Assembly: GCA_951406725.2 (NCBI GenBank)
Contig: OX597843.1
Location: 6,448,001-6,512,000, forward strand
DNA: 64,000 nucleotides
Direction of reading: 5' to 3'
Source of the DNA: Octopus vulgaris
Taxonomy: Eukaryota
The notes under the pieces are model-generated. The model made no database searches. It had not been told where the DNA came from and was given only the letters and a program-made list of their open reading frames with translations. The position numbers were made by a program, and so were the translations under genes. This document shows positions 25,648-55,726 of this stretch, piece by piece; position 1 is the first letter of the stretch, and every line of letters starts with the position of its first letter.

Positions 25648-25697
<50 letters not shown>

Positions 25698-26096: not shown

Positions 26097-26128
<32 letters not shown>

Positions 26129-28085: not shown

Positions 28086-28202
28086 CACTTCTGCCAACTT
28101 CTCTTGCACTTGTTTCATCTCCTTGGTTTGGTAATAGAGGGCTTCCTCCAGCTGGGACACTTTGGCCGTCTTCTCAGCTAATTCTACACTTACTTGGCTT
28201 GT
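28086..28202 (-). CDS. CLIP1: CLIP1-like exon I (TSQVSVELAEK...QEKLAEV)
   Basis: tttccttgcag|ACA...GTG|GTAAGT, 117 nt, phase 0-0. Confidence 0.9.
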
Positions 28203-28403
28203 CTGCAAGGAAAGGACCGAGAGAGAGAGAGAGAGAGAGATAGAGAGAGAGAATGAGTGGAAGCATAGATAAGATGGTCAGTGGTGGTGGTCGCACTGGA
28301 ACAAGACAAACCGACAGACAAATCCTAACCATTTTGTAACCATTTTTCTGCCTTGGTTTCAAAAAATTTTGGAAATAATCAAGAATTTAGTAAAATAAGT
28401 TTG

Positions 28404-28438
<35 letters not shown>

Positions 28439-28441
<3 letters not shown>

Positions 28442-28568
28442 GGTGTCCCAAAAAAAATGTATACACATAGTGGTTCGGCAAAAGATAATGATAGAATAAG
28501 TACTAGGCTTACAAAGAATAACAAATTTACAATTATTTAAGGTGTGTATACATTTTTTTTGGGACACC

Positions 28569-28571
<3 letters not shown>
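28439..28571. mobile_element. Tc1/mariner-type MITE in (TA)n
   Basis: Perfect ~29-bp TIR CAGGGTGTCCCAAAAAAAATGTATACACA, TA on both flanks. Confidence 0.85.
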
Positions 28572-28617
<46 letters not shown>

Positions 28618-28752
28618 AGTTCAGTAAAATTTGGATTCAGATGAATGTGGTACTTAAGTTAAAGGCACCAGAATTTAGTATGGTATTCTCCATAGAATTC
28701 AAAATGGGGTGATTACAAACAAAATAAGCAACAAGGATATCATCCAGAGGTA

Positions 28753-28842
28753 ATGCAGTACGATCGTTTCATGCGACTCCATTTAATTGAACAATGCAAA
28801 TATTACATCAGTTTTAAAATGTAGAGCAATCTTCAGCTGCAT
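28753..28842 (-). ncRNA. Type I hammerhead ribozyme-like fold
   Basis: ATGCAG-CTGAAGA-tTGC..GCAt-GAAAC GATC GTA-CTGCAT. Perfect 6-bp stem I; first stem II pair is a U.U mismatch. Confidence 0.6.
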
Positions 28843-29358
28843 AAAAATACAGAATTTAGTTAACTTTGAAGGATTCATTTGTATAGTTTTCTTATCATCC
28901 AAAATCACAAAGAGGATACGGAGATAGACAAAGAACAAGTTTCATCAACAACATCAGAGTTGGAACTGAGATTTTTTTCAAAAGGAAGACACTGTTTATC
29001 ATTGATTTTATTTTGTTATTCAGATTTACTAATGGGGGGGGGGGGGTTAGTCCTAATTTATAGACTAGTTTATCAAGTCTAATGGAAACTAGAATCTATC
29101 TTTTATGGATAGAGTAAAATTTAGAGACAATCTAAGTGGCAGAGTCATAAATCAAGATTTCTTTGAAATGAAAACCATTGGGCTTCAGGAAGAATATAAT
29201 TTCAGCCATATATATATATATGCCGATGAACGGCAACGGGAAACTCAGAGTAACAGGTTTTGTTGAATTTTCTGCTGCTTTAAATAAAGCATATTACTCT
29301 ACCTCTGGTATTTGAGTACTCTTTTTTCCACCTTGTTTCACATTTATGTGTTTACTCC

Positions 29359-29410
<52 letters not shown>

Positions 29411-30216
29411 TTATATAAAATCTGTTGTGTGTGTGTGGCTTCTAGGATCTCGGGCATCAAATTTGATATGTAGATACCGACAGTATCAGGGCGTGTATAA
29501 GTCTTGAAAAAATTACAAAAATCGATTCCAGGTGAGAATGGGATTGATTAAGCTGAATAAAATCGTTTTTCTTTGGAATAGAAAAAAAGTCTATCGTTAT
29601 TTCTTCTTTTGCTGGTGTCTCAAATTTAGGTTAAATCAGTGTTTCTCAAAGGGGAGGCCTATGGGACGGTTGGACAAGTTTTTCTGAGAAAATATGGTTT
29701 AAATGTTTGACAACTCAGCACCGTCCATTGGCGTTTTGCTCGTTTATATATATGTATGTATACACACACATACACATACTGATTAAAAACTGTATCACAA
29801 TGGGAAAGTAAAGGGGTGGTATTTGAAGAGAATGAGAAGGAAGAGGTAGGGATCAGCGAGGAGTTAATAGCCCCAGATACAGGAGGAGGCTGGTTCGCAA
29901 ACATCACATCACGCATCAAAAGTACATCCTGTCAGCAACGTCACTACCCACCTCATCAGACAGCACAACACGGCACAGCACAGCGTGGCACCCGAGGATT
30001 ACAACACAACATGGTACAGCACAACATACCACTACACTACATCACAAACACCTCACCTCTATCCAACAGAACAGAACATTGTGAAAACCACAACACCACA
30101 TAACACAGCAGAACTACACCACCCAAACACAACACCACATCATCATCGTCATCATCGTCATCATTATTATTATTATTATTATTATTATTACATCGACCTC
30201 CAGCAATTGGCTGGAA

Positions 30217-30269
<53 letters not shown>

Positions 30270-30756
30270 CAGGAAGCTTTATGAAAATAGACAAAAGACG
30301 AAGGCAGGTGGAGTACAAACAAACAATGTATTAGTATGGCACTCAGGAATAGAAATAAAACAAGTCTTTTATGTTTCAAGTCTACGCTCTTCAACAGAAA
30401 GATTCACAGAAAAGAAACACGGAGAGAAACAAGGAGAGAAAAAAAATGCGTGCAGAAGCTAGCGAATCAACATGGCGATCTGATTCCGGCCAGAAGTCAA
30501 AGATCAAACGTGAGACGCAAGAGTGAAAATAGGGGAGATAACAGGGTCAAATGACCACGCCCCAACGACATATATATGATAGATTGGTAGCCACTACACC
30601 TTCTTTATTTTCTCTCCTTGTTTCTTTCTGTGTTCCTTTCTGTAGAAGAGCGTAGGCTCGAAATGTTAAAGACTTCTTCACTTCCCGAGTGTTATACTAA
30701 TACATCTGTTTGTTGTCTACAACACCTGTCTTCGTCTTTTGTGTTTTTTTGTGAAG

Positions 30757-30788
<32 letters not shown>

Positions 30789-31071
30789 ATATATACACAC
30801 ACACACACACATATTGTCATTTAATGTCCGTTTTCCATGCTGGCATAGGTTGGACAGTTTGACTGAAAACTGGTAAGTCAGGGAGCTGCACCAGGTCCCT
30901 ATCTGATTTTATATATATATATATATATATGCCAAACACTAGAGATATACACACACACACCCAGATGGTGCATGCACACACTCCAACTATCATGCACACA
31001 CACAAACATATACACACACACACACACAAACATACACATTGAGCAGTGCATGCATGCATGCACACACAAAG

Positions 31072-31103
<32 letters not shown>

Positions 31104-31459
31104 ACACAAATAGCTTAATTATTAATATGCACAAACAAAACCATGAGACATAAAAAATACAAAAAGCAACATGTTCCCGCACCCCTCACACGTATGTAGG
31201 AAGAAGAGCGTGTTAAGGCGAGGTTTTAGTGACTAAGCGAGATGTCCATTTAGTGGACAATTAGTTGACCAACAGCTGTGACACACTGACACAGTTGGTA
31301 GAAGGATGACCGCTGTTAGTCAATGACCAAATCTGTCGTCTTATTAGTTTCAACAAAGACAAGTACAGGTAAGAAAGCACCAGCATCACCAAAACACCGA
31401 CAAGAATCAGGAAATCAGGCTCCAAAATATACCCTTATTTACACACCCATTATTATTAT

Positions 31460-32306
31460 TACTGAGTGAGAGAGCAGTGCATGCCCTCAAAGTGACACTG
31501 GGGTATAAATATACAAAGCCCAATATACCCACCATGACTATCTACCTGATAAGGGTACACCAGGCACATGCATTGCAACCATATGTACATGATATGGCGG
31601 TCTTATATCAAGATAGACAGCGCTTGACCTTGCAAGAGGGGCCCAGTTAGAATTTTCTTCGGGTCATATAGGCCACCATGCTGAAAAGCTCCTTGAATGA
31701 GGGTTGTTTAAGGATGATGAATGAAACACCCAGGTTCCCAGAAATGAATTATTCAAACTCCAAAGAATTCCTCTCAACAAATGGTTATGATGCTCCCCCA
31801 CCACTTCTGCCCGTGATCAGAGATGCACATATCGTCAGCCACTAAGGGACATGCTCAACTGGTTAAGGTCAAACAACTTCTGATCTTAACTGATTGGAAG
31901 TGTTATCATGTACATTGTTTTGTGTTGGTATAAAAGATGGCCTACAGCAAATATTCTGCTCAATACCACAGATTTGCTTGTCAGTTGTTTGACCTTAACC
32001 AGTTGAGCATGTCCCTTAGTGGCTGACGATATGTGCATCTCTGATCACGAGCAGAAGTAGTGGGGGAACATCATAGCCATGTGTTGAGAGGGATTCTTTG
32101 GAGTTTGGATAATTCACCCTTGGAAACATGGGTGGTTTTTTCAACATCCTTAAACAACCCTTATTCAGGGACCTTTTGAGTGGGATGGGCTACTCGTCCA
32201 GAAGAAAATTGTAACTGGGCCCCACCTGCAAGGTCATGTGCTGTTTATCTTGATATGAGATCACCATGTGCCTAGTGTACCCTTATCAGATGGGTATACT
32301 GGGCTC
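31460..32306. repeat. Inverted pair of a ~420-bp dispersed repeat (another copy 42165-42590)
   Basis: 31812-31878 is the exact reverse complement of 31983-32049; similarity continues outward for ~300 bp. Confidence 0.85.
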
Positions 32307-33239
32307 ATTATTATTATTATTATTATTATTGTTATTATCATCATTATTATTATTACTGCTCCACTGTGTAACACGATTTTTGTCCTTGGGCAGAAACTGT
32401 TGTTTTCTATTTGCTTATCCTTAGAAAGTATGAAAAATGGCTAAGATTTCTTTCAAATTTTGCTTTTGTTACATTTATTCAAGCCCTAAAAAATCCCTCT
32501 CAACATCTGGCTATGAACCTCTCCCCCCCCCACTACCACCTCGACTCCTGCTCATCATCAGAGATGCACATAGTGTCAGCCACTAAGGGACATGTTCAAG
32601 TGGCTAAGGTCAAACAACTGACAAGCAAATCTGTGGTATTGAGCAGACTAATGGCTATAATGGTATTTCTACTTCAGCAACTCAGCACTGAATCTGTCTA
32701 AAATGTAACGGAAAATATGTCTTTTTTTAAATCATTGATGTCCAGGTGATAAAAGCAAAGTTTGAAGGGAATAATAGTGATTTCCTTAGATTTTTGTTTT
32801 TATTAAATTTATTCAAACCCCCAAAGAATCCCTCTCGACAGATGGCTGTGATACTCCCCCACTACTTCTGCTCATCATCAGAGATGCACATATTATCAGC
32901 CACCAAGGGACATGCCCATTTGGATACGGTCAAGCAGCTGATAAGCGAATCTGTGGCACTGAGCAGAATATTTTCAGTAACGATATTTCTGCCTCAGCAA
33001 CTCAGCAGTGAATCTGTCTAAAATGTAATGGAAACACAGGTGTTTCACAACCTTGATGTCCAGGTGATCAAAGCAAAGTTCGAAGAGAATGGCAGTCATT
33101 TCTTTTCATTTTTAGATTGAAGCAAATTGCAAATAACATTTACTGATCAAAGACAAAAAAAAAATAATTGTTACACAGTGTTGTTGTTGTTATTATTATT
33201 ATTTATTATCATGACTTAGAATACCTCGACCACACTTAC

Positions 33240-33272
33240 CGTTTCTGGTTCTGCAGGGGTTAAAGGTGATGT
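33240..33272 (-). CDS. CLIP1: Probable 33-nt cassette exon (TSPLTPAEPET)
   Basis: Strong acceptor gtttttaatccctttcag, strong donor ACG|GTAAGT, open frame, phase 0-0 between exons H and I. Confidence 0.7.
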
Positions 33273-35478
33273 CTGAAAGGGATTAAAAACAGTTGAAGAA
33301 ATTAAACGACCCCCTCTTTATCTCCCTAAACATTTTCTCGTTCCTGGTTGCAGTAATTAGCAAGTTCTTTGACGAGATACAAGTGGAAGATTACTGAGGG
33401 GAGAGCCACTGGGTACCAGTAGGGTGTAGGGAGCCCTTCAACAGTCATAATTTATTCGGGGTTTCTACACACGGTCAGATCCATTCCAAGGGACAGGTCA
33501 GTTTTTTTTTTTATTTAGCAGGGACTGTAGAAGGGAACCCATATTTTTTTTTATACTTGCTGAGTAAAAAAAAATTGAAGATAGACATGGTTGAGTGGTT
33601 AAAGGGTTAGTTTCCCAACCCCATGGTTTTGGTTTCCATCCCACTGTGTGGTACTTTGACTCACAAGGCTTTGATTGGTTCAAGACTATAACAAAAGACA
33701 GTTGCCTAAGGTATCACACAGTCGGACTGAACCCAAAGCCACACGGCTGAGAAGCAAGCTCCCTAACCACACAGCTATGCCTCTCCTCCTTTCCTTTCTC
33801 TTCCTGGGTAACCATGGACTCCCTCTATAGCAAGACACCTATTTCTGCCCCTCTATTTCTCTGTCACACTCAAACCTTTCATCCCCTGACACAAGTTCCC
33901 CTCCTGAAATGCCCCTGCTCCTCTCGAAATTCCTTGCCTTGCGAGTCGCTTGGTGACCCTGTCAGTGCAGGTGCCACATGAAATAGCACCCACTACGCTC
34001 TGCAGAGGGGTTGGCATTTGGAAGGACATCCAGCTGTGCAGATAATGCCAAAACTAACCTCACCTGTGCTGGTGCCACGTTAAAAGCACTGAGTCCACTC
34101 TGCAGGGTGGTTGATGTTAGGAAGGGGATCCAACTGTAAAGACCTTGCCAAAACAGATACAATAACCTGGGACCATCTTCTACCTGGCTGGCTCCTGTCA
34201 ACCACCCTACTCATACATGCATGGAAGATGGATGTTGATGATGAAGGCACATGGATCAGTGGTTAGAGCATAGGGATCTCAATCATGAGGTTGAGAGTTC
34301 GAATCCCGGATCGGGCTGCGTGTCGTGTTCTTGAACAAGACACTTTATTCCACATTGCTATAGAAATGAGTTGTGACATCACAGGTGCCAAGCTGTATCG
34401 GCCCCTTTGCCTTTCCCTTGGGTAACACTGGCAGTGTTGAGAGGGGAGGCTGGTATGCATGGGCGACTGCTGGTCTTCCATAAACAACCTTTCCCAGACT
34501 TGTGACTGGGAGGGTAACTTAACAGGTGCAATCCCGTGGTCAGTCATGACCGAAGGGGGTCTGAGTGATATACACACACACGATTCTTTCACTTTCCGCC
34601 TACCAATTTCACTCACAAGCTTTGGTCAGCCCAAAAGTATAGCAGGAAACTACTATAACCCTGGGGTCATGCAGAGGACCTGAACTTGGAACCTTGCAAT
34701 TTGGCAGCAATCTTTTACAACACAACCACACAACCAGCTGATTAAAGTTGTTCTAGGATCCTGCCATTCGTTAGTCTCTCATTAATAACCATTTCAATTC
34801 TTTGTAAATTGTAAGTATGTTTCTACAATTAACGAGGCCTCGGTATATTAAGGTGGACCTCAGGATGGGGCAGGGTCTGTCTACATTAACAATCTCTGTT
34901 AAATAGAATGAGTTCAACAAGGAATAAATAAAAAAACAAATTAACATAGGCAGTAAGTGGGAGCATAGCATAACTTGAAGTTAGGGGATGTAATTGGTGC
35001 GCAGGTAAAGGTGGTGCTAGTATAGGGAGGGTGGCACAGTTTATTGTTATTAACAACAGTAAACGGTTAGAATAAATTGTTGATGAATTTAAGAACTTTC
35101 GAGAGAACGCGAAATAATTTTTGGGGGATAATGGATCTCAAAGCAAAATGATATCTACATATTATGTATAGCTTTATGTGCTTCAAGATACATTATTCCA
35201 GCCCCTCCCCCTTGCCACAAGAAAGAAGGATTATACGACACGGGTAAATGGAACATCCAACGTCTCTGTGCATGTGTGTATATATGTGTGCTTGTGGATG
35301 TGTGTTGGCGATTTTTTTCCCTCTGGATCTTTCCTTCTCCTATGTTTCCGACGAAGAGCTCCGCTCGAAACGTTAAACCCTCCTTCTTCCCTTCCTTCCT
35401 GAGCGTCCAATAATACTATATTTGTTCCACATCCTTGTGTTGTTGTGTTTTTTTGTGCTTTCTTGTTTGGATTAACTT

Positions 35479-35527
<49 letters not shown>

Positions 35528-35708
35528 CATATATATATATATATATGTAGACATACATACATTCACACATATATATCCACATATGTTTAAGAAACAGACA
35601 CATTTAAGAGACTGATATACATACATATATAGACATATTTAACAGACACACACACATATATATATATAGACCAACAGACACACACACACACATTTATATT
35701 GGACATAC

Positions 35709-35861
35709 CTTTGCACCCTCTTCCAGTTTAGTGGCTTCATATGATGTGATTTTGTTCTCTGCCTGGGTCAACTTGTGGGTCAGCTCATCTATCTGGTCAA
35801 GATACATGGTCTGAGTGTCCTCAGACACCTTCAGTTGGCTCTCATAGTCATCCAACTTCCC
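35709..35861 (-). CDS. CLIP1: CLIP1-like exon H (GKLDDYESQLK...KLEEGAK)
   Basis: ttcgtccag|GGG...AAG|GTATGT, 153 nt, phase 0-0, coiled coil. Confidence 0.9.
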
Positions 35862-36245
35862 CTGGACGAAAAGAGATAGAAAGACATGGTCATTAGGGTC
35901 AACTGGACATTCAGACACACACACTACTGGACATTACACACAGCTGGACAAGAGATTATAGTGTTGCCCTGTAGAACCAGGCAACAAAGGGATGACACTG
36001 AATCCTTGTCTATCGGTCAAACAGCTGGACAAGAGAGGGCATCAACTGGCACAAAGCCACCACCACCCTCACTTCTCCCCCCTTCTAGCCGAAGGGGTTT
36101 TTCTCTTGCAAAATATTTGGTGACCCTGTGAGGGCTGGTGCCACATAAAAAAGCACCCCACAACACTCTGCAGAGTGTTTGGCATTGGGAAGGGCTCCCA
36201 GCTGTAAAGACCCTGCCAAAAAGGACCACAGAACCTGGTGTACAC

Positions 36246-36945
36246 AACTGGAACATCTTTGATCATAGGTCTACTGGATCAGGACTGACCTGGGGCTAAA
36301 TATCATCAACAAAGAAGGACACATTAGATAATGTAGTCCTAGATACACTATGTCAAAATAAAAGACAGGATGGTCACAGCTGGAACATCTTTGATCATAG
36401 GTCTACTAGATCAGGACTGACCTGGGGCTAAACAACAAGAAGGACACATTAGATAATGTAGTCCTAGGTACACTATGTCTAAATAAAAGAGAGGATGGTC
36501 ACAGCTGGAACATCTTTGATCATAGGTCTGCTGGATCAGGACTGACCTGGGGCTAAACATCATCAACAAAGAAGCACACATTAGATAATGTAGTCCTAGG
36601 TGCACTATGCCTGAATAAAAGACAGGATGGTCACAGTTGGAACATCTTTGATCACAGGTTTACTGGATCAGGACTGACCTGGGGCTAAACAACCAGGAAG
36701 GACACATTATATAATGTAGTCCTAGATACACTATGCCTGAATAAAAGACAGGATGGTCACAGTTGGAACATCTTTGATCACAGGTTTACTGGATCAGGAC
36801 TGACCTGGGGCTAAACAACCAGGAAGGACACATTATATAATGTAGTCCTAGATACACTATGTCAGAATAAAAGACAGGATGGTCACTGCTGGAACATCTT
36901 TGATCATAGGTCTGTCTGGATCAGGACTGACCTGGGGCTAAAAAG
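36246..36945 (+). repeat. ~120-bp satellite-like array (~6 units)
   Basis: Unit gacacattagataatgtagtcctagatacac...gactgacctggggctaaac. Confidence 0.9.
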
Positions 36946-37002
36946 AAAGACACCACCACCACCACCACTGCCACCCCCATCACACCCCTGTCACCAACTT
37001 AC

Positions 37003-37107
37003 CTTGGCCTCAGTCAATTCTTTCTCCATAGTTTGGGATTTCTCTACCATTTTCTTATTCTTGGATTCCAATTCCTGCAGCTTCGCTTCTTCCTCTTCAG
37101 TTTTGCT
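37003..37107 (-). CDS. CLIP1: CLIP1-like exon G (SKTEEEEAKLQELE...KELTEAK)
   Basis: attttcag|AGC...AAG|GTAAGT, 105 nt, phase 0-0. Confidence 0.9.
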
Positions 37108-38049
37108 CTGAAAATATCGTGGAATAAAAAATAACATTCGCTGACTGACTTTATATATATATATATATACACTAGCAGTATCGCCCGGCACTGGTGTCAT
37201 GCAAATGGCACCGTAATACATCCTTATATATTACTGGTATCATTATCTTATATGTAAAGAATAATATGCTATATGTATGTATGTTATTATAATTATCATT
37301 TTAATAAATAAATAAGTTAACATTTTTAATGTCCAAAAGTTGATGAACCACCTATTGTTCTCCTTCAATTTCTTATTTGCAATATAAACATATATATATA
37401 TACTCTTTATATTTTATTAAACTTTTAATACTTTTGATATATATTTAAAATAATATAAATTAAATTAACTTTATGTATTGGCTTATGTTTTTCATTGTTT
37501 GATTTGCCTAATAGTGGTTTTATCTCTAATTTAATATAATATAATATAATATACTATAAAATTGGATTTAATCCTAAATCTGATTTTTCCCTGTAAGTTT
37601 GGATTTATTCCCTAATATTTTATTATTAATATATATACATATATATATATAACGGGAAGGTTTACGAAAATAAACAAAAGACGAAGGCAGGTGGAATACA
37701 AACAAACAATTGTATTAGTATAGCGCTCAGGAATAGAAATAAAACAAGTCTTTTACGTTTCGAGCCTACGCTCTTCGACAGAAAGATACACAGAAAAGAA
37801 ACAAGGAGAGAAAAAAAATTGCGTGTAGGGGCTAACGATCCAACATAAATATATATATACATATATATATATATGTGACCGCGTGTGTACCGTTGGCGAT
37901 TTTTTCCCTCTGTCTTCCCTTCTCCTATGTTTCCGACAAAGAGCTCCGCTCAAAACGTTAAACCCTCCTTCTTTCCTGAGCGTCCAATAATACTATATTT
38001 GTTCCACGTTCCTCGCGTTGTTGTTTTTTGTGCTTTCTTGTTTGGATTA

Positions 38050-38101
<52 letters not shown>

Positions 38102-38382
38102 CATATATATATATATATGTGTGTAGACATACATACACACACACACACACATATACAGAAAGAAAAAGAGAGAGATGGAGAGAGAGATTGAGACAGACAG
38201 ACTGAATAACAGATAGTTAAAGAGAGAAACAGCTAAAAAAAAAGAAAAACAGAGACAGTGTGACAGAGAGAAGAAGGGAGAGAAAGAAAGACACACAGAC
38301 ACACGTGAAAGACGGTGACAAATAAACAGTGAGAGCCAGACACACAGACATACCCCCAAAACCCCACCCCTCCTCTACTCAC

Positions 38383-38443
38383 CTCCAGGTCGTCCTTCCC
38401 CACCACTTCCTCCTCAATTTGAAACTGAAGGTCTTCCGTTTTC
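38383..38443 (-). CDS. CLIP1: CLIP1-like exon F (RKTEDLQFQIEEEVVGKDDLE)
   Basis: gttgcag|G...GAG|GTGAGT, 61 nt, phase 2 to 0. Matches the CLIP family motif RKVEDLQF.VEEE...K.DLE. Confidence 0.93.
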
Positions 38444-39846
38444 CTGCAACACAAAACACAAACAGAATTATTGGTGTGGCAGGGCATTATTGCCCTCACT
38501 TCCCCACCTCCTTTTATTTCAAGCATTAGCAGACAACAGCCTATATTGTTGCTGTCCCATCTGGGGCTGCAGTGTTTGATCCATCCCTCTTGTTTCAAGA
38601 CAGATGGAATATCATTCAAAGGAGACTTAGCTACTATTTCTAGCAGGTTGAGTGCTCCTGTAGTGGGTCTCTCAATGAGGAGAGAGAAACACAAAGTTTT
38701 ATATAGATGCGTTGGGACATTGAGGCACATTTGGGTTGATACAAATTGCTAAGGGAGTGCCACTGTGATGTATGTCACTACAAGAGTGCCACAATGATAG
38801 GTGTTACCACCAGAGTGCCACCCTGGTGTGTGCGCCACCACCAGAGTGTGTGCCACTGTGGTGTGCTCCACCACTAGAGCGTTACTATGGTGCATACCAC
38901 CACAGAGTGACACTGCAGTGTGTGCCACTACTAGAGTGCCACCACTAAAGTACCACTGTGAGGCATTCCAACAGTGGAGTGTCAATGTGGGTGTGTATGC
39001 CACGTATGGAGAGGCACAGTGATGTTGCTGTTGATGTGTAACATTGTGGGACATGCGACTCATCAAGCACCCCATAGTGTGTTCAACCACTGGAACGTTG
39101 AGGTGTGAGGGTCACAAGTGGAGTGCCACTTGCTAAAGACACATTACATAATGTACTCCAAGATATAATAAATAAATGCGCCCTTTTTAAAGCCTAGCCA
39201 GGCTTTAAAAGGGTCCGGTTTCCTGATTTCTATGGCGTATGTGTTCCCCAGCTGGACGGGAGGCCAGTCCATCGCAGCGTTACTCATTTTTGCCAGCTGA
39301 GTGGACTGGAGCAACGTGAAATGAAGTGTTTTGCTCAAGAACACAACACGTCGCCCGGTCCAGGAATCGAAACCACAATCTTACGATCATGGTGTGCTGA
39401 CACCCTAACCACTAAGCCACGCGCCTCCACACTCCAAGATATACTACATCTAAAACAACAGCAAAAAAATTTATGGGATGGTCACTGTTGGAACATCTCT
39501 GAACATAATTCTACCTGCTCAAGAGGCTGACCAGGAGCTAAAACAACAACAAGATACAGAACAGATCCAAATCGTGGCCGAAGCCAGCGCCGCCTCGACT
39601 GGCTTCCGTGCAGGTGGCACGTAAAATGCACCAATCCGACCGTGGCCGTTGCCAGCCTCGCCTGGCACCTGTGTCGGTGGCACGTAAAAAGCACCCACTA
39701 CACTCACGGAGTGGTTGGCGTTAGCAAGGGCATCCAGCTGTAGAAACATTGCCAGATAAGACCGGAGCCTGGTGCAGCCTTCTGGCTTCCCAGATCCCCG
39801 GTCGAACCGTCCAACCCATGCTAGCATGGAGAACGGACGTTAAACA

Positions 39847-39901
<55 letters not shown>

Positions 39902-39931
39902 CGGATCAAATCCAAAGCCGAAACACGTTAC

Positions 39932-40077
39932 CTCCGTAGATCCTCCAGCTCATTCTCTAACTCGTGATTCTTGCGCTCCAGCTGTTGGGCAACGTTCTTC
40001 CACTTGACCAGGGCATCATCGGCCGAGTCCTTGAACCTGTCGTGCTCTGACCGCATCACAGCCAAATCTCCCTCCGC
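39932..40077 (-). CDS. CLIP1: CLIP1-like exon E (AEGDLAVMRS...ELENELEDLR)
   Basis: ctttccag|GCG...AG|GTAACG, 146 nt, phase 0 to 2, coiled-coil composition. Confidence 0.9.
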
Positions 40078-40203
40078 CTGGAAAGAGGTCGCAAAAAAAA
40101 AAAAGAAAAAGAAAAAACGCATGAAGAGGAGAAGAAAAGATGAGGATTTGTAAAGCTGTTAAGACATCCTCTTCAACCGGTCAGTTCACTTACCATGTCG
40201 GAT

Positions 40204-40323
40204 AGGGGAAGTTGGATGACTATGAGAGCCAGCTGAAGGTGTCTGAGGATACTCAGACCATGTACCTTGACCAGATAGATGAACTGACCCACAAGTTGAC
40301 CCAGGCAGAGAACAAAATTACAT
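40204..40323 (+). pseudogene. Inverted partial duplicate of exon H inside the D-E intron
   Basis: Plus strand reads AG GGG AAG TTG GAT GAC...AAA ATT ACA T, matching the acceptor AG plus the first 118 nt of exon H with 5 mismatches. Confidence 0.95.
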
Positions 40324-40349
40324 AAGCCTCAACCCTAATCTTCACCAAT

Positions 40350-40595
40350 GCAATCTGCCTTGGGGGGCCCTACCAGAAACCGAAGTCTCCAATGGCATAG
40401 TTCTGACACCCCCGTTTCACCCCCTTACCGCGATGAGGAGGGGTTGGACTTTCATGTCTACGGCATTCGCCGCTGGAATAAGGAGCGGTTGGAGGTCCCA
40501 CGGTCGTTAGCCTCAAATTATCAGGTCTGGTCAGCGTTTGTAAGAGATGCCAGCTCAGCCCACCCCGGGTGAATGCTGTCTCAAGACAATAAGCA
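40350..40595 (+). mobile_element. Probable RTE-clade-derived non-autonomous retroelement
   Basis: The start (ctgccttgggggg.cctaccag..gtctcc.atggcatag) and end (gcccaccccgggtgaatgc..caag) resemble RTE 5' and 3' ends as I recall them; not searched. Confidence 0.5.
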
Positions 40596-41174
40596 GAAGC
40601 ATGGTCAAAGGGCATTAAATGATGAAGATTACTCTGACTAATACAGAATGTGATTTTTATTTATAGAATGACATTGTAGGGTGGGTGTGAGAAGCTGGAT
40701 CTGGCCAGTTTCAACATAGAACAAGTATTGGGGGTGTGTGTAAAACTGGTTTAAATGCTAATGAATTGACAAAGGGTGAAGGGTCAATTAAAATCTGGAC
40801 CATGGAAAAGTAGCTTCAACTGACCCCTGTGATGTTACAGGGACCAGTTTTGTCATGAGGGCTCAAAACATCTCATAGTACAAGACATAACAGGAGATTT
40901 GTAAACCTATTCCACCCATCTCTAATATTGGTATTGCTCAATGCAGGGTAGATTTTGCTGTCCACTGCTCTCCTCCTCAACACCAGGCCACCTCAGATGT
41001 TACGTTTCGGAGACTTCTGCAACTTAAACATCTGTTCCAGAGATCCTTCAACCTCTCAATCCAACACATCTATATCTGAAGTGTGGAGGCGCAATGGCCC
41101 GGGCCTTTGGGCCACAGCCCTTCCTACTGATCGCCACTAAGGTAGACAAGATATACAAAGGGTCAGACACTCAC

Positions 41175-41273
41175 CTGGTCCACTTTTGCGGCGGCCCTTG
41201 CCACCTCAGATCTTTCCAGTTCTCGTTCCCGCAACAATTGCTCAATGTGCTCCTCTTTCTCTTTTAAGGCTTT
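41175..41273 (-). CDS. CLIP1: CLIP1-like exon D (KALKEKEEHIEQLLRERELERSEVARAAAKVDQ)
   Basis: ctttgtag|AAA...CAG|GTGAGT, 99 nt. Matches the CLIP family coiled-coil start ALKEK..HIEQLL.ER.LER.EVA. Confidence 0.93.
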
Positions 41274-41489
41274 CTACAAAGACAAATATTAGAAAGGTTA
41301 GGGGTGGACATATGGGGGGACACTGCAAGGGAAGGAGGGCGGAAGAAATCACAACAAGGTACTTGGGCGAACCAGTTGAAGAAGACAGGGCTCGTAACAA
41401 TGGGGTAACACCATGCACTGGTTAACAACAAGGGAGAGGTAATAAAGAGGGCATGATTGGAGAAGGGCTACACTGGGTTAATATCTGAA

Positions 41490-41800
41490 GATGGGTAACA
41501 GTTGGGGAGGGTTAACGGCTGGGGAGGGTCGACAGCTGGGAGGGTCAACGGCTGGGGAGGGTTAATGGTTGGGGAGGGGTAACGGCTGGGGAGGGTCAAC
41601 GGCTGGGGGAGGGTTAACGGCTGGGAGGGTCAACGGCCGGGGAGGGTTAACGGCTGGGGGAGGGTCAATGGCTGAGAGGGTTAACGGCTGGGAGGGTCAA
41701 CGACTGGGGGAGGGTCAATGGCTGGGGAAGGTCAACGACTGGGGAGGGGTAACGGTTGGGGAGGGGTAACGGTTGGGGAGGGGAAACGGCTGGGGAGGGG
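41490..41800. repeat. G-rich 16-17-bp minisatellite
   Basis: (ggttaacggctggggag)n, about 18 copies. Confidence 0.9.
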
Positions 41801-42589
41801 AAAAATCTGGGGTAAAAACTGGAGAGAAGCAATATTAAGATAAGTAGAGTGTGTGTGTGTGTGGGGGGACGGGTTGATTTATATTGCTGAAAGAGCTGGG
41901 AATGGGAAAATATTGGGGAAACAAATGGAGGCAAAATTCTGGCAAGGTCGACTTTACCCTTCATCCTTTCAGAAATTGATGAAATACAATTCAAGTACTG
42001 GGGTTGATGTAACAGACGAGTCCCTTCCCACAGAATCCCAGGCCTTGTGCCCAGAGTAGAAAGGAACGTTATTATCTTTAGAAGAGGTGAGACACTCACT
42101 GACAGTCTTCCTCAAAAACTGTGCTAAAATTAATAATAATGATAATAATTATTATTATTATTATTGAGTGAGAGAGCAGTGCATGCCATCAAAGTGACAC
42201 TGGGGTAAAATATACGAAGCCCAGTATACCCATCATGACTACCCATCTGATAAGGGTACACCAGGCACATGCATCACAACGATATGTGCGCGATATTGTG
42301 ATCTCATATCAAGATAAACAGCACATGACCTTGTAGGTGGGGCCCAGTTAGAATTTTCTTCTGGTCGAGTAAGCCCATCCCGCTCAAAAGGTCCCTGAAT
42401 AAGGATTGTTTAAGGATGTTGAAAGAACCACCCATGTTTCCAGAGGTGAACTATTCAAACCCCAAATAATTCTTTTCAACACATGGCTATGATGCTCCCC
42501 CACTACTTCTGCTCATGATCAGAGATGCACATATCGTCAGCCACTAAGGGACATGCTCAACTGGTTATGGTCAAACAACTGACAAGCAA

Positions 42590-42633
<44 letters not shown>

Positions 42634-43121
42634 GGTGGTGAGCTGGCAGAGTTGTTAGCACACTGGACGAAATGTTTAGCAGTATTTCACCTGTAGCTAC
42701 GTTCTGAGTTCAAATTCCGCCGAGGTTGACTTTACCTTTCATCCTATTGGGACCAGTAAAATAAGCACCAATGAAACGCTGGGGTCGATGTAATCGACTA
42801 GCCCCTTCCCCCAAAATTTCAGGCCTTGTGCCTGTAGTAAAAGGATCATTATTATTATTATTATTATCATTATTATTATTATTAAACAGATATGATTAAT
42901 TAGGGTTTCAAATTTTGCCACAGGGCCAGCAAGCTTGGGGGAAAGGAGGGGTGTCGGTAACTTCAACCCCAGTGCTTAACTGGTACTTATTTTATCGATC
43001 CTAAAAGGGTGAAGGGCAAAGCTGACCTCGGCGGAATTTGAACTCAGAATGTCAAGATGGATGAAATACCACTAAGCACGTTGACCAGCGTGCTAATGAT
43101 TCTGCCAGCTTCCTGCCCTAA

Positions 43122-43159
<38 letters not shown>

Positions 43160-43168
43160 ATAATAATA

Positions 43169-43218
<50 letters not shown>

Positions 43219-44494
43219 AATAATAATACTCCATTCTGCTAAAGGAACAAGGCCTGAAAGTTTGCGGGAGGGGACCAGTCCATTACATCAACCCCAGTGT
43301 TTCTTAATTTATCGACCTTAAAAGGGTGAAAGTGAAAGTTGACCTTGGCAGAATTTGAACTCAGAATGTAAGGACAGACAGAATGTCACAAAGTCTGCCA
43401 GCTTGCCACCCTAACAACAACAACAATAATAATAACAACAATCCTTTCTAATGGAAGCACAAGGCCTACAATTTGTGGGACGGAGACAAATTGATCACAT
43501 CGACCCCAGTGCGTAACTGGTACTTAATTTATTGACCCCGAAAAGATGAAAGGCAAAGTTGACCCCAGCAGAGCTGACTTGCCTTTCATCCTTTCGGGAT
43601 AATAATAATAATAATAATGATAAAAACAACAACAAGAACAATAACAGGTAACATCCAACAAGAACATTTGTTTTTAATAAGAAAGACCTTCATTAGGGAT
43701 CCTAATATTAATTAACTCGTTAGTAAATAAATTTGGCAACAATAACAAATCAACTGAAACACTTGAAATGGAAGAAATAAGACCCTCCCCACCAAAGAAC
43801 ATTCTGGAAGTCAATTCTGTTAGAACATAAGTAACCTTGTACTAGGGTCCACTCAACATTGTCCAGGGTCGAGGACCGAGCCCAAATTCACTCCATCGTG
43901 TTCTGACCCCCACACAGATGCACCATCAGAAAGGAGACAACGGTACCTTAATGGTGGAGACAGCTTGCACAAACACTGCAGAGGGGGCAACATGGATATT
44001 CCTGAACCTTTGGTTAGGGTTAGGGTCAGAGTTAGGGTTCTAAAGCCTTTCTGAATTAATGGCTTTCCTACCGCAGTTCTACATACACAATGACACAATG
44101 CCTGAAAAAGGTACAGGATGGTCACAGCTGGAGCATCAGTGATCTCAGGCCAACTCAATGAAGACTGACCCGGGGCTAAACAACAATAAATTTCCCCCCC
44201 ACGTTAGACCCTTCTCCATCATCAAAGACAACAACAGTTTGTTAGTGGAAACAACTATTCCGATGGAGATGTTGTGGGTTACAGACGGTCTACAAGCTAC
44301 AGTTAGTTGGCATTGGGGGTCACGAAACAAGTGTTAATGTACATGGAAAAAGGGGGTTAACTTTAGGGACTGGAAAAGGTCTAACCTGGGGTTTTCCCGA
44401 CACCTGTTTTGGAAAAATAAATGTAAGTCTTTAGATTATAATTTATCCTAGCTAATTTACAGTGTATTAGATATATATATATATATATATCTAA

Positions 44495-45160
44495 TGTGTA
44501 GTAGCTAACTCTGAAATTGGTCCGATATGGTAATAATGGAACATTTTAGAAATTTGTGTCAACCTTTATTCGAGTAGCGTGCGTATTGTGAAAAAATTAT
44601 ATGGTGAATGGACAATATGTCCAATTTTTCGGCATATTTGGCATTAGAAATTTTTTCCTTTGCCCTCATTTATGAATTGTTTATAAATTTAACCGTTAAA
44701 GGTATTTTTTAATATGCTGGCCATTGATAAAATTTTTTTGAGAAAATATTTTATCCTCACATTAGATATAAATTTAAGCGTTCACTTCCGAACTATCTCA
44801 CTCTGTGAGAGCCTCAGTTCAAATCGCACGTGCCTCGAATGGGCTGGAGTATTTCTATTTTGGATGTATTTGGGGTACTTAGTTGTGCCCATGACTTAGT
44901 ATTTGCTTCTTCCAAGGGTATGAGTAAGTATCTCATTTATTTCTTTTTGCCACATGTATCACTGACGAAGAGGGGGCTCTTAGTAGCTAACTCTGAAATC
45001 GGTCCGATATGGCAATAATGGAATTTTTTAGAAATTTCTGTCAACCTTTTTTCGAGTAGCGTGCGTATTGTGAAAAAATTATATGGTTAATGGACAATAT
45101 GTCCAATTTTTCGGCAAATTTGGCATTAGAAATTTTTTTCCTTGCCCTCATTTATGAATT
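44495..45160 (+). mobile_element. Penelope-like remnant with ~180-bp direct repeat and degenerate hammerhead motif
   Basis: 44500-44680 recurs at 44982-45160; CTGACGA-AGAG..CTCT-GAAA at 44962-44998; flanked by (TA)n. Confidence 0.45.
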
Positions 45161-45420
45161 ATATATACATATATATAAATTAGAAAAAAAATACCATTTA
45201 GAAATACCATTTATACCATTTAGAAAAATTACATATTATAGAAAGATTAAATATAAGATAAAACATATAACAATGATATATAACAAAGTGCAGAAATAAT
45301 AAATAAAACGTATATATTTGGTTTTTAATCTAACTATATTTATAATTAAATTTATATTTAATTTTTCTAAATGGTATAATTTAATTTTTCATTATTGAAT
45401 TGATAAAAAGTGGGGTTTTT

Positions 45421-45532
<112 letters not shown>

Positions 45533-45601
45533 TATATTTTGTGAAATTTCATTTAGTATTTCTAAATTGAATTTTTCCCTGGAAGTTTGGAATAATATTC
45601 C

Positions 45602-45645
<44 letters not shown>

Positions 45646-47242
45646 TATATATGTAAGCAAACTTAAGGTTAGTTAAAGTAAGTTTGTGACATATTTCAAC
45701 TCCTAAAGGCAAATTCACTGCAGTTGCCATGGAGGAAAAAGAGCTCATCCATTTCCACATGTAAAAAGAAAGCATGGCCATGTGGTAAGAAGCTTGCTTC
45801 TGAACCACATGGTTCTGTGTTCAGTCCCACTGTGTGGCACCTTGGGCAAGTGTCTTCAACTACAGCCTCGGGCCGACCAAAGCTTTGCAAGTGGTTTTGG
45901 TAGATGGAAACTAAGAGAAGCCCATCGTATATATATATTTTGTGTGTGTGTGTGTGTGATTGTCCCTCACCACTGCTTGACAACCAGTGTTAGTGTGTTT
46001 ATGTCCCTGTAACTTAGCAGTTCGGCAAAAGACACTGACAGAGTAAGAACCAAGGTTAACAGAAATAAATACTGAGACCGATTCGTTCAACTAAAATTCT
46101 TCAACGCATTGCTACAGCATGGCCACAGCCCAATGACTGAAACAAGTAAAACAATGATAAACATGGTGAGATCTAATCCAGTCTGCTATCAAATCCACGT
46201 CCAGGATGACGGCATCTGCTGAGGATTATCTGGGATTAAAGGTATCAGAGTATGGCATACATACATTTTGAAATGTTTTTTTCTGGTTTTAAATCTTTCA
46301 TCTCTGACGATGAAATTAATTAGCCTGGATAATTAAAATCATAATCTTATTAGTAGTAACACATCTCAGACATTTAATTAACAGAATTAATTACAAAGCT
46401 TCAATCCATGCAGGGATTTTGCAAAGGGATTCACAGAAGGTTTAAAAAAAAAAAATAAGGCTTAAGGGTCAACGACAACAACTATGCAAATATCAGAAAT
46501 AACAACAACAACTATGCAAATATCAGAAATAATAAATAATAAAGGCACAGGAGAGGCTGTGTGGTAAGTAACTTGCTTCTGAACCACATGGTTCCGGGTT
46601 CAGTCCCACTGCGTGGCACCTTGGGCAAGTGTCTTCTGCTATAGCCCCGGGCCAACCAAAGCCTTGTGAGTGGATTTGGTAGACGGAAACTGAAAGAAGC
46701 CCGTCGTATATATGTATATATATGTATATGTGTGTATGCTTGTGTTTGTTCCCCCAATATCGCTTGACAACCGATGCTGGTGTGTTTACGTCCCCGTAAC
46801 TTAGCGGTTCGGCAAAAGAGACCGATAGAATAAGTACTAGGCTTACAAAGAATAAGTCCTGGGGGTTGATTTGATTCGACTGAAGGCGGTGCTCCAGCAT
46901 GGCCGCAGCCAAATGACTGAAACAAGTACAAGAATAACCAGTAACCCCCCACCACGTTTTCCCCTCTATTTCTCACAGAAGAAGTTGACTGGGAGTTGCA
47001 ATTTATTTTTAAAATAACCGTCTTCAGTTTAGTGGTTCGTGCTTATTCCTGTCTTTGGTCAAGAAGAAGCTCAGATCAAGTGAAATTGTAGTTGTGGCCG
47101 ACGCCGGGGTCACGTAACTGGCACCTATGCTGGTGGCACATAGAAAAAACCATACATGACACTCTTGGAGTGGTTGGCATTAAGAAGGGCATCCAGCCTG
47201 CCAAATGAGACAGCCTCCCAGTGTCAGTCAAATTGTCTAACC

Positions 47243-47446
47243 CAGTGGTTTTTTTCAACCAGGGTTCCGTCAGTACAGTCCAAGGGTTCCACAAGAAGTT
47301 ACAAAACTGCTAAAATCGTCAGTAATTTTTAATTCTCCTGTGCAGATATGTGTGCATAAGACTATTAAATTATTGCACAGGGGTTCCTCGAGCCAGTGGA
47401 ATGTTTCCTTGGGGTTCCACTCCAGCAAAAAGTTTGAAAAGCACTG
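47243..47446. mobile_element. hAT-type MITE
   Basis: CAGTG...CACTG ends with 8-bp TSD GTCTAACC, inserted into a SINE-like repeat. Confidence 0.8.
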
Positions 47447-47539
47447 GTCTAACCCATGCCAGCATGGAAAGCAGATGCTAAATAATGGGGGTGATATGGT
47501 TGAGAGAATATGATTGCCAATACAAGTGACCAAAATAGG

Positions 47540-47800
47540 GTCTCTTTGAAGGATCTCTAGAATGAAGTTGATATGACAGGGTGCACGGCTTGGAGATCAG
47601 AGAGTCTCTGGGTGAAGCCGGCTACTTCCCCTGCATTGAGAGCTCATGGTTCAGGTACAACGGACACGTGATTAAAATGTCACAGGAAAGAACTGCAAAA
47701 GGGATTCTTCAAGCTGAGCGAAATCCCAAGAGATTCAGGGGTAGACTGAGAAGGGGATGGTTGGATGATATCCATTGCCTCTGTTGGTCTTGTTTGTGAA
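47540..47800 (+). pseudogene. Decayed LINE ORF C-terminal fragment
   Basis: WFRYNGHVIKM..RTAK..KRFRGRLRRGWLDDI matches the RT C-terminal pattern GHV.RM...KR.RGRP...W.D. Confidence 0.65.
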
Positions 47801-47970
47801 TCCAGAACTGGGGTTGTCTTCCTCAGCTAAAAACCCTTCAGGGTCCTGCTCCAGCATGGCCACAGTCTAACGACTGAAACAAAGTGCTCCTGTGCCAAAG
47901 CAACAGAGAGAGAGAGAGAGAGAGAGGAAGGTGGGGGGTGGGATGAGGAAAATGAGAAAGCTGTACAGAC

Positions 47971-48030
47971 CTGTAGTGCTGAGGTGGTGGCTGATATGTT
48001 TAACGTTCCAGGTCTCTGTCCTTGCTTGTG
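47971..48030 (-). CDS. CLIP1: CLIP1-like exon C (HKQGQRPGTLNISATTSALQ)
   Basis: gtgcag|CAC...CAG|GTCTGT, 60 nt, phase 0-0. ISATTSALQ resembles the vertebrate CLIP1 ISGTTALQ segment as I recall it. Confidence 0.85.
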
Positions 48031-48179
48031 CTGCACGGGAGGAGGAATTGGAAAGAGAAGAAGACATTGAGAATATACAAATATATATATATATATATAG
48101 GGATTAGGGGGGGGGGGAGAAAAGGGATTTAGGGAATTATTATCTGATGATGAAGGGAAATATATGGCAGAAGACCAGT

Positions 48180-48730
48180 GATGACATGATAGATGACTGA
48201 CAGAAGACAGATGGATGATGACAAACGACAGATGGATGATGACAGATGACAAATAGATGACAGATGGATAAGAGATGTCAGATTGATGACTGACAGAAGA
48301 CAGATGGATGACGAGATGTCAGATAGATGACCGACAGAAGACAGACGACAAATGGCTGATGACAGATGACAAATGGATAATGACAGATGACAAATGGATG
48401 ATGACAGATGACAAATGGGGGATGACAGATGAATGACAGATGACAAATGGAGGATGACAGATGACAAATGGAAGATGACAGACGACATATGGATGATGAC
48501 AGATGACATGGATGATGACAGATGACAAATGGGGGATGACAGATGACAAATGGAGGATGACAGATGACAAATGGATGATGACAGATGACAAATGGGGGAT
48601 GACAGATGATAAATGGATGATGACAGATGACAAATGGATGTCAGATGGATGACTGACAGAAGATAACAGATGACAGGTGACTGACAAAATGACAAGTGAC
48701 AGACAGAGGATGACTAACGACTGAGAAAGG
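48180..48730. repeat. (gatgacagatgacaaatg..)n minisatellite
   Basis: ~21-bp degenerate unit filling most of the B-C intron. Confidence 0.9.
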
Positions 48731-48786
48731 ATGACAAACGACATGAGAGGAGAATCAAGAAGAGAGAAAGGTGTGTGTCTATGTAC

Positions 48787-49012
48787 CTGGCTGCTTAAAG
48801 CTGTCACCCCTAGTCTCACTCGACTCCGCGACACACTTGAGGCTGTGGAGCTGATGGAGCTGACTGACTCCTGACTGCCGCTGCGTTCCCGGGACATACG
48901 AAGGCTGGTGCTACCCAGCGTCCTTGGGCTTGGGGTGGACACGCCACCCACCAAGCGGGTCACCTTGTGCACCGGAGCAAACAGCCCATACTGGGGCTTG
49001 CACTCAAAATAT
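48787..49012 (-). CDS. CLIP1: CLIP1-like exon B (end of CAP-Gly 2, Ser-rich region)
   Basis: tctttcag|A completes Arg, then YFECKPQYGLFAPVHKV...SSISSTASSVSRSRVRLGVTALSSQ. Donor CAG|GTACAT; phase 2 to 0 fits exon A. Confidence 0.93.
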
Positions 49013-49599
49013 CTGAAAGAAAGAAAAAAGATATAAAAATCACTGAATGATGCAGGGTGGGAGGGGATTGTAATAAGGGTGGGTGGGTAGACTGGGTAGA
49101 AGTGGCATGGGGGTGGGTGAGACAGGTGGTAGTGAGAGGGTGGTGGGGAGAAAAGGGTAACTCAGAAGAGATGGGTTAGGGTGGAAGGGTGGGTAGACTT
49201 GAGAGAACAGGGTGGGTAGGGTGAACAGATTGGCAATGGTGACAGCATTGTGTGGGTGTGTTAGGGGTGGATAACCTGGTGGTGGTGGCAGCATGGGGTA
49301 GGTGGGTGGCCTGCATAGAAGTGGCATGGGGTAGGGGGAAGACAGAAGGATGGCTTTGATAAAAAAGGTGGGTATCATGGCTATCAATGATCAGACTGTA
49401 GGTTTGATGGAATAGGGGTAGGCAATGATACCTGGGTAGCTGGGCATACTGGTTGGTAGAGAGAGAGGTTAGACAGAAACTCTAGAAGTGACACCTAGTG
49501 GCTAGACAGAATAGTAATGACCAAGCAGGGCAGATGAATGATACTGAGAAAAGGGTAGGTGAAAGGGGTGGGAGAAAGAAAATGTAGCTAGGCTTTTTT

Positions 49600-50095
49600 T
49601 AACCCCAGGTCATAGATACACTATGTCTTTTAGTCAGACATAGTCTATCTAGGACTACATTATCTAATGTGCCTTTCCTTACTGTTGTTGTTTAGCCCCA
49701 GGTCAGTCCTGATCCAGCAGACCAATGATCAAAGATGTTCCAGCTGTGACCATCCTGTCTTTTATTCAGGCATAGTGTATCTAGGACTACATTATCTAAT
49801 GTGCCTTTCTTTGTTGTTGTTGTTGTTGTTTAGCCCCAGGTCAGTCCTGATCCAGCAGACCTATGATCAAAGATATTCCAGCCTTGACCATCCTGTCTTT
49901 TATTCAGACACAGGGTATCTAGGACTACATTATCTAATGTGCCTTTCCTTACTGTTGCTGTTTAGCCCCAGGTCAGTCCTGATCCAGCAGATCTATGATG
50001 AAAGATGTTCCAGCTGTGACCATCCTGTCTTTTATTCAGGCATAGTGTATCTAGGACTACATTATCTGATGTATCCTTCCTGTCCTGATCCAGCA
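49600..50095 (-). repeat. Same ~120-bp satellite, inverted (~4 units)
   Basis: Reverse complement of the 36246 unit. Confidence 0.9.
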
Positions 50096-50386
50096 GGCCA
50101 AAGCAATGAAGGGTACAAATACAAACCTTAGGCAAGTGTCTTCTATAGCTCCACCTACAAAATCTATAGGCAATGCTTTAGTTGGAGCTATAGGAGAGGA
50201 GACACTTGCCTAAGGTGTCACACAGTGGAACAGAACCTGCAAGCTCCTTACCATACAGCCATGGCTGCACCTTGAACCCAGAACCATGCAGTTGGGAAGC
50301 AAGCTCCTTACCACACAGCCACACCTGCACTTGTTTGTATTTTTCTACATATAATAAATAAATATATATATATATATATATATATA

Positions 50387-50674
50387 TCTTTATATATAAA
50401 AGTGAAATTGTGTGTCTGTCTCTCACGATTTAGATTCCTAACTACTCCCACATTTTACGGTGCAGTTTAACCAAAACCGGGTATCTTATAGTCGTGATTC
50501 ATATCGAGCCCTTCTGGGTATTAGCGCGCGTCTACGATTTAAAAAAAAATTTACCATAATTTTTTTCCATTTTTAATGCATTTTTTTGCTATTATATAAG
50601 GGAAGTAACTCTCTAAAAATGCTTATATAGTTATTTCCCTTACAAACCCGAGCAACGCCGGGCGATACTGCTAG
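50387..50674 (+). mobile_element. Helitron-like element, short variant
   Basis: Same TC...CTAG termini, hairpin and body. Confidence 0.8.
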
Positions 50675-51450
50675 TATATATATATAACGGGAAGCTTTAT
50701 GAAAATAAACAAAAGACGAAGGCAGGTATATATATATATATATAGATATATAGTTTTTTTTCCTTCTCTTTTCTTAGAAGCATGTTCTTCATAACTTATG
50801 TGTAATATTTCAGAAACCTACTCAAATGGCAAACATTTCAAAGGAAAAACCAGATTGGGTTACCAGCTGCTAATGATCGGAAACGTTATAAGTGGAAATA
50901 CTAGAATTATGAGTTTTTCGCTTTTTGCATCTATTAAAAAAATACTCTGTACTCGTTTATTTAATATTGTAATTCATCGCTTTTAGTGAATCAACAGAGA
51001 ACCATCCTTTCCTTCATTCTTTTTCTTGTTTCAGTCATTTGACTGCGGCCATGCTGGAGCACTGCCTTATGATCGGAGAAATTGACCCTGGGACTTATTC
51101 TCTGTAAGCCTGGTATGGATTCTATTGGTCTCTTTTGAAGAATAAAGTTGTCAAGTGAGGGTGGGTGGGACAAACACAAACACATCATCATCATCATCAT
51201 CATCGTTTAACGTCCGTTCTCCATGCTAGCATGGGTTGGACGGTTCAACTGGGGCCTGGGAAGCCAGGAGGCTGCACCAGGTTCCAGTCTGATCTGGCAG
51301 TGTTTCTACAGCTGGATGCCCTTCCTAACGCCAACCACTCCGTGAGTGTAGTGGGTGCTTTTTACATGCCAGGGGAGGCCTGCATGGTGTGTGTGTGTAT
51401 ATATATACACCTGATGGGCTTCTTCCAGGGTAGGCTGGCAGGTGTGTGTT

Positions 51451-51492
<42 letters not shown>

Positions 51493-52151
51493 CACCTGAT
51501 GGGCTTCTTTCAGTTTCCATCTACCAGATCCACTCACAAGGCTTTGGTCGGCCCAAAGCTATAGTAGAAGACACTTACCCAAGGTGCCACGCAGTGGGAC
51601 TGAACCCGGAACCATGTGGTTGGTAAGCAAGCTTCTTCCCACACTGTCATGCCTGCCTACACAAACACACACAATCTTAACAACAAAAAGAAGAATTAAA
51701 AGCGCTGAAGATATCTTTCTCCCGTGTATTAATAGACGGGTATAAAAAGGGTCTTTGAGCTTTCCTAAGGTAACGATACGATACGAAACACCACATGCAA
51801 CCTCGCCTCCTTCCCTTTCTATTCTTCCTCTTGTCTAGCGCTGAGAGCCAATTTCAGTCTCTGAGAGACAGACACATCGACTCCAAGCGCCAGACAAAAC
51901 AGATTAAAACATAGAGAAGGATTTCATTTCATTTCTTCTGCAAAATTCAAAGAACTTTTACACCTGTTTTCGTCTATAGATATGTATATATATAAAGAAC
52001 TGATACCTTTGCTATTTGAAACTAATTCTTTGTTTTATTGTTATTATCATTATTATTACTACTACCACCATTACTGCTATTATTATTACTATTATTATCA
52101 TCATTATTTTTATTACTATTTCTGTTGCCATTTTTGTTATTATTATCATCA

Positions 52152-52184
<33 letters not shown>

Positions 52185-52185
<1 letters not shown>

Positions 52186-55669: not shown

Positions 55670-55726
<57 letters not shown>

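Follow-up and report, generated by a model that had tools for sequence, protein, structure and literature searches.

The intron between exons D and E of the octopus CLIP1 gene carries, in the genome assembly, an inverted copy of the beginning of the gene's own exon H, and a contig from a close relative shows the same site intact and empty. We analysed a window of 64,000 nucleotides of Octopus vulgaris DNA (contig OX597843.1) around this copy and conclude that it is real in the assembly, young and probably unselected. The reading that we prefer, in which we place reasonable though far from full confidence, is that of a young, possibly still polymorphic templated insertion which likely has no selected function.

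Using tblastn and splice-site fitting, together with Pfam searches, 13 exons of CLIP1 (CLIP-170/CAP-Gly linker) were mapped on the minus strand from 60402 to 4692 (span 4692..60402); the gene extends beyond them, and the Pfam domains CAP_GLY and CLIP1_ZNF were found in it. The exons of concern here, all on the minus strand, are D (99 nt, 41175..41273), E (146 nt, 39932..40077, starting in phase 0), F (61 nt, 38383..38443), G (105 nt, 37003..37107, ending in ...AAG), H (153 nt, 35709..35861, phase 0) and I (33 nt, 33240..33272, placed by exon mapping and RefSeq isoforms). Exon H is translated into 51 amino acids of coiled coil that are 100% identical to the Octopus sinensis CAP-Gly domain-containing linker protein 1. 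This match to an octopus protein bears out the relevance of ADAR enzymes to which the initial annotation had appealed, and its exon arithmetic was also right: exons E to G add up to 312 nt and, with exon H, to 465 nt, which is frame-neutral. All four RefSeq isoforms of O. sinensis retain exons E-H. One of the four lacks exon I, a cassette exon that immediately follows exon H.

Self-alignment of the window by blastn shows that 40204..40323 on the plus strand corresponds to 35863-35744 in inverted orientation, with 115 of 120 positions identical and no gaps (E 1.4e-49). The copy thus contains nucleotides 1-118 of exon H together with the AG that precedes the exon, as had been described from the sequence at the outset, and the described distance of 126 nt from exon E is equally correct (copy edge at 40204, exon E edge at 40077). 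It comprises 39 codons whose protein is identical to that of exon H, and its leading AG fits both the end of exon G (...AAG) in spliced mRNA and the end of the intron. The stop-to-stop frame of the copy is exactly 39 codons long, with TAG before and TAA after it (40203-40325). In whole-genome searches with the DNA, with the protein and with the copy plus its flanks (2, 3 and 2 candidates scored, respectively), the exon H sequence matches only two genomic places, namely exon H and the copy, and exon H is the only one of the 13 mapped exons with a second copy of more than 16 nt in the window. The local inverted duplication of an exon that had been proposed is borne out. A paralogue or retrogene as donor was rejected, since the genome searches returned no third match to exon H and a single match to the CAP-Gly exon.

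The region 39905-41330 was compared with the contigs of four DNA runs (of 24 listed) from four organisms under code labels. In run X4 (organism B), position 40203 is followed on one contig by GG and then by 40321, so that the copy is absent and the flanks are intact; relative to this empty site, the insert is 40204-40320, that is 117 nt in place of GG. The bridging contig has a depth of 46.3, with single-copy depth at 40-48, and its shorter side measures 70 letters. The absence of the copy is accordingly documented in one run of one organism, X4 being the only bridging run among the four; X1, X5 and X7 lack cover across it and have no bearing on presence or absence. The gap in organism B coincides with both ends of the homology to exon H, which fits insertion into an older site rather than loss, and the comparison with the intron of a related organism, which the initial annotation had called for, points to a young copy. 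We infer this polarity, with the empty state as the ancestral one, from the sequence comparison without an outgroup; none of the 232 pattern matches from a metagenome scan for outgroup exon H DNA was confirmed. At the right junction, the letters CAT (40321-40323) are common to donor and target, a microhomology of 3 nt, after which AAGCC follows in the target and, after 6 more nucleotides, in the donor. At the left junction the homology is 0-1 nt, and the empty-site comparison revealed neither a target-site duplication nor a poly(A) stretch.

On the plus strand, 27 unique bases separate the copy from a LINE, which its motifs suggest to be RTE-like. Its 5' terminus (40351..40452, minus strand, in gene-sense direction) is inverted relative to the 3' end of the same family (40453..40590, plus strand, with an AAGAC-type tail), as recognised from other copies in the genome; in these, an endonuclease-like frame, matching Exo_endo_phos at E 0.0002 and under the curated Pfam cut-off, lies downstream of the 5' piece. 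A second X4 contig spans the internal junction of the element (record 13, 40361-40482) and places the LINE in organism B; as the copy is absent there, it postdates the LINE. LINEs are known to produce chimeric retrocopies and, by twin priming, 5' inversions, and the copy resembles such a chimera in lying 27 nt from a 5'-inverted element and in being co-oriented with its tail. However, in organism B the LINE is present and the copy is not, so that the copy was not co-inserted with the element; capture of the exon by the LINE was rejected on this evidence. The copy also has no target-site duplication shared with the LINE, no poly(A) of its own and no clear exon-exon junction, its leading AG fitting exon G and the intron alike. 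Among 17 loci with the LINE 5' piece, picked by hand from 50 matches, eight are inverted like the one here, two are arranged otherwise and seven have no nearby 3' piece. Several of the copies with an inverted 5' end against a truncated 3' end (L014-L021) have, by eye, apparent target-site duplications, in a twin-priming-like arrangement. At the empty-site junction (40194-40203 joined to 40321-40323), 14 of 15 bases agree with a stretch close to where LINE homology begins in two copies (L005 and L008), by chance or as a LINE relic. A further, high-copy short repeat fragment occupies 40648..40767 of intron D-E (no strand assigned; genome search and run contigs).

The exon and its copy differ at five positions, and all five differences are synonymous third-position transitions. 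The probability of such an outcome is 0.0015-0.005 if the copy alone mutated and 0.014-0.04 if the copy and the synonymous sites of the exon drift. Compared with the copy, the exon H contigs show 4 differing letters of 120 in organism B and 3 of 91 in organism D; neither organism has an A>G row at 40283, where the copy has the same base as B and D. One of the five differences is thus a change in the window's exon, and the other four separate the copy from the exons of B, D and the window (the variant rows for B and D show 40250 and 40265; 40232 and 40319 follow from the counts, with 12 rows unseen). At 35784, within a Glu codon, exon H of the window has G, while the base is A in the copy and in organisms B and D, a silent difference; this may be a polymorphism or an assembly base. 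Between organism B and the window, a manual count gave about 10-13 differences over roughly 820 intronic bases, at which rate a neutral copy made after the split would have about 0.8 changes, and at least four with a probability of about 0.008. As the differences are too many for such a copy and are all synonymous, the simplest fit is a deeply diverged exon H allele as donor, itself postulated, which would have gained its differences under coding constraint. An older neutral insertion that sorted between the lineages fits as well (four of four synonymous, P 0.03-0.07), in which case the all-synonymous pattern may be chance. Haplotypes in the surrounding intron are mosaic: over 40561-40686, 4 letters and 2 gaps separate X1 from the window, against one letter for X7, and X5 has 5 changes within 40970-41009. 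In these two patches the runs diverge by at least 3% in a manner that does not track the organism labels, which suggests old shared polymorphism or introgression at the locus.

Under the templated-insertion reading, a break in intron D-E, or a fork stalled there, would have been primed on the diverged exon H allele at the CAT microhomology, and synthesis would have run to the exon start before rejoining, the template having been somewhat more probably DNA than CLIP1 RNA, with the latter a serious contender. Templated insertions of the MMBIR/FoSTeS-like kind (PMC8421209) share with the copy an inverted sequence from nearby, an otherwise intact site, short microhomology, here at the right junction, and the lack of a target-site duplication, and the copy has the empty site with intact flanks and the same-chromosome template expected of them. 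Such events, like TINS, accumulate as germline variants (PMC8421209 and PMC7165422). In contrast, the template range of MMBSearch is 100 bp (PMC8421209), against 4.3 kb here, and polymerase-theta TINS copy 3-30 bp from the flank (PMC7165422), whereas 117 nt were taken here from 4.3 kb away, so that the copy falls outside the latter class. The start at an exon boundary and the all-synonymous differences are peculiar to the copy in this comparison. Further points count against a templated insertion: clear microhomology is lacking at the left junction, a start within 2 nt of the exon boundary would occur by chance in about 1-8% of cases by our estimate, and a strong latent splice donor 8 nt from the copy, described below, has to be taken as coincidence.

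In the pre-mRNA, the copy could pair with the exon H arm at 35744-35863 (minus strand), the acceptor AG included, and the arms flank exons E-G at a distance of 4.3 kb. The duplex of about 120 bp over the exon H acceptor that the initial annotation had envisaged is indeed predicted to be thermodynamically strong (-229.9 kcal/mol in duplexfold, against -32.1 and -30.2 for the arms alone and a loop cost of about +13), and the number of mismatches given there agrees with the predicted structure, in which three of the five differences are open mismatches, and with base identity, which makes the other two G-U wobbles. Long near-perfect duplexes are edited unselectively, and low-level ADAR editing of this kind would be expected in transcripts in which intron D-E outlasts the synthesis of exon H; for this, the 1.1-kb intron, which is short and may be spliced out earlier, would need to outlast 4.3 kb of transcription. 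Since the modelled duplex hides the exon H acceptor, D-to-I skipping or a circle of exons E-F-G would be more plausible than D-to-H joining, and some skipping or circles of this type may perhaps arise.

An existing role of the copy in editing or splicing, be it that of an editing-complementary sequence or of a switch, with recoding of exon H, D-to-I skipping (465 nt) or E-G back-splicing at meaningful levels, we regard as unlikely. In addition to the strong predicted duplex over the acceptor AG and the octopus host, it would be in line with octopus editing occurring mostly in introns and 3'UTRs with hairpins (PMC9699675), and several candidate adenosines for Lys-to-Arg and Tyr-to-Cys changes are well placed. 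However, the sole A·C mismatch on the exon side, at 35835, would change CAA to CAG and is silent, no recoding adenosine is singled out by an A·C mismatch in the predicted duplex, and editing would recode at 36 of the 40 paired adenosines; in combination, this points to damage more than to a finely adapted site. The copy is also absent in organism B, so that conservation, looked for in the one bridging run, was not found. The spacing of 4.3 kb speaks against this role as well: editing of Alu pairs is best with arms 300-400 nt apart and drops with distance (PMC526178), and coleoid recoding clusters mostly find their explanation in structures formed locally, over up to 200-400 nt (PMC8891338), in work that by its own account has largely ignored introns. 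Intron-guided editing needs slow splicing (PMC5291252), and octopus circRNAs are low overall (PMC9699675). CLIP1 moreover contains 30 long inverted-repeat pairs already, a further point against a guide role. The four O. sinensis isoforms that keep exons E-H also weigh against it, provided that this species carries the filled allele. The 64,827 characters searched in the supplement of PMC8382921 contain no match to CLIP1, CLIP2, CL190 or CAP-Gly, and a narrow literature search, missing most subscription journals, returned no inverted exon copy acting as a new editing guide. Of the earlier proposal of an editing guide or splice switch created de novo, the duplication, its young age and the predicted duplex therefore stand, while a role as guide or switch is not supported, the copy not being conserved in B, the A·C mismatch being silent and the arms lying 4.3 kb apart.

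The type example of an intronic editing-complementary sequence is that of GluA2/GRIA2, with which the copy shares an intronic arm complementary to a coding exon and a duplex that exists in the pre-mRNA only. In contrast to the short, imperfect and conserved stem of the GRIA2 type, the copy is a near-perfect match of 120 bp, is not conserved in B and offers no A·C mismatch that would recode. Shaped like an editing-complementary sequence, it nevertheless falls short in conservation and target site, and we do not class it as one. Inverted Alu pairs, which lead to hyper-editing, to loop-out skipping and to the formation of circRNAs, resemble it in having long similar inverted arms in one transcript, in this case flanking exons E-G. 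The arms of Alu pairs are repeats with an optimum at 300-400 nt (PMC526178, as above), whereas here one arm is a coding exon and the spacing 4.3 kb.

A latent splice donor, ATG/GTAAGT, lies at 40188..40196 on the minus strand, 8 nt after the antisense copy on the gene strand. Scored with a crude matrix built from the gene's own 13 exons, the site, which had been spotted after the fact, ranks third of 3,509 GT sites, behind the exon G donor and a tandem-repeat site. The sequence ATGGTAAGT occurs once in 56 kb, the donor site is unique in the genome search, and there is no variant row at it for organism B. Removal of a putative intron of 116 nt (40193-40078) would leave its ATG, which has G at -3 and +4, in frame with exon E. 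A candidate unannotated first exon, which would give a CLIP1 form without CAP-Gly domains and predate the copy, is possible. By extension, the donor might end an alternative first exon, possibly LINE-driven, with the copy in its leader, so that the mature mRNA would fold from the leader to exon H and be edited or poorly translated; to this we attach only a small likelihood. Introns of phase 0 at the start codon are a known class (PMC1626468), and the 5' end of the LINE is oriented toward the donor from about 260 nt upstream. On the other hand, the donor's rank depends on the crude matrix, three out-of-frame ATGs lie upstream in the putative leader, and no protein starting at exon E was found among 13 candidates (one match, a full-length protein) or six cluster members, which is a weak test. 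Exonisation through acceptors inside the antisense copy was considered separately and rejected, their scores being weak (-5.4 to 2.8).

We give still less credence to the copy being an artefact of assembly or polishing. In none of the four DNA runs does a listed contig cover the left or the right edge of the inserted sequence, so that the copy rests on the assembly, and the one bridging run is empty; moreover, the copied frame is oddly neat, being protein-identical and having stops before and after it. Against this, the copy carries at 40283 the base of the B and D exons and not that of the assembly's own exon, and the right junction shows microhomology between donor and target. A piece in X1 that falls within the copy and measures about 58-78 nt is compatible with the filled allele, the bin arithmetic having six integer solutions; because of these six solutions the depth bins of X1 were dropped as proof of that allele. 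Finally, that the copy is old and protein-coding, for instance as an opposite-strand terminal exon attached by trans-splicing after the model of mod(mdg4), and was lost in B, would agree with the five synonymous differences, the kept AG and the stop codon directly after it, and is nevertheless most improbable, since the gap in B lies at both ends of the homology as in an insertion, not a loss, and the plus-strand acceptor has a score of -2.6, below the 0.9 to 13.8 of genuine acceptors.

These elements can be joined in one conjecture, possible if doubtful: that one repair event preserved a divergent exon H allele in reverse just inside the leader of an unannotated ATG-ended first exon or in intron D-E, at once giving rise to a 120-bp exon duplex, turning exon H into an ADAR substrate and damping an isoform without CAP-Gly, in which case the filled and empty alleles would show the birth of a recoding cluster. 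Studies of the double-stranded structure at coleoid recoding sites have paid little attention to intron-exon pairing (PMC8891338), and the occurrence of CLIP1 in closely related lineages in forms that have or lack an exon-complementary arm offers a direct test of how editing duplexes arise. The contrast between the alleles can show whether one insertion suffices for editing, skipping or circles in a coding exon, and a negative outcome would bound the arm spacing for such pairing. If the copy is neutral debris, which we hold to be likelier, it is one more young inverted scrap of an exon, with an all-synonymous signature that records an older allele.

Between 4692 and 60402, 30 pairs of inverted repeats reach at least 100 bp and at least 80% identity, their arms no more than 10 kb apart; most consist of repeats in introns A-B and B-C. 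As judged from the sequence, the intronic potential of CLIP1 for double-stranded RNA is ample. Head-to-tail arrays with units of about 130 bp occur in both orientations in three introns (36243-36942, 49624-50083 and 57321-58684).
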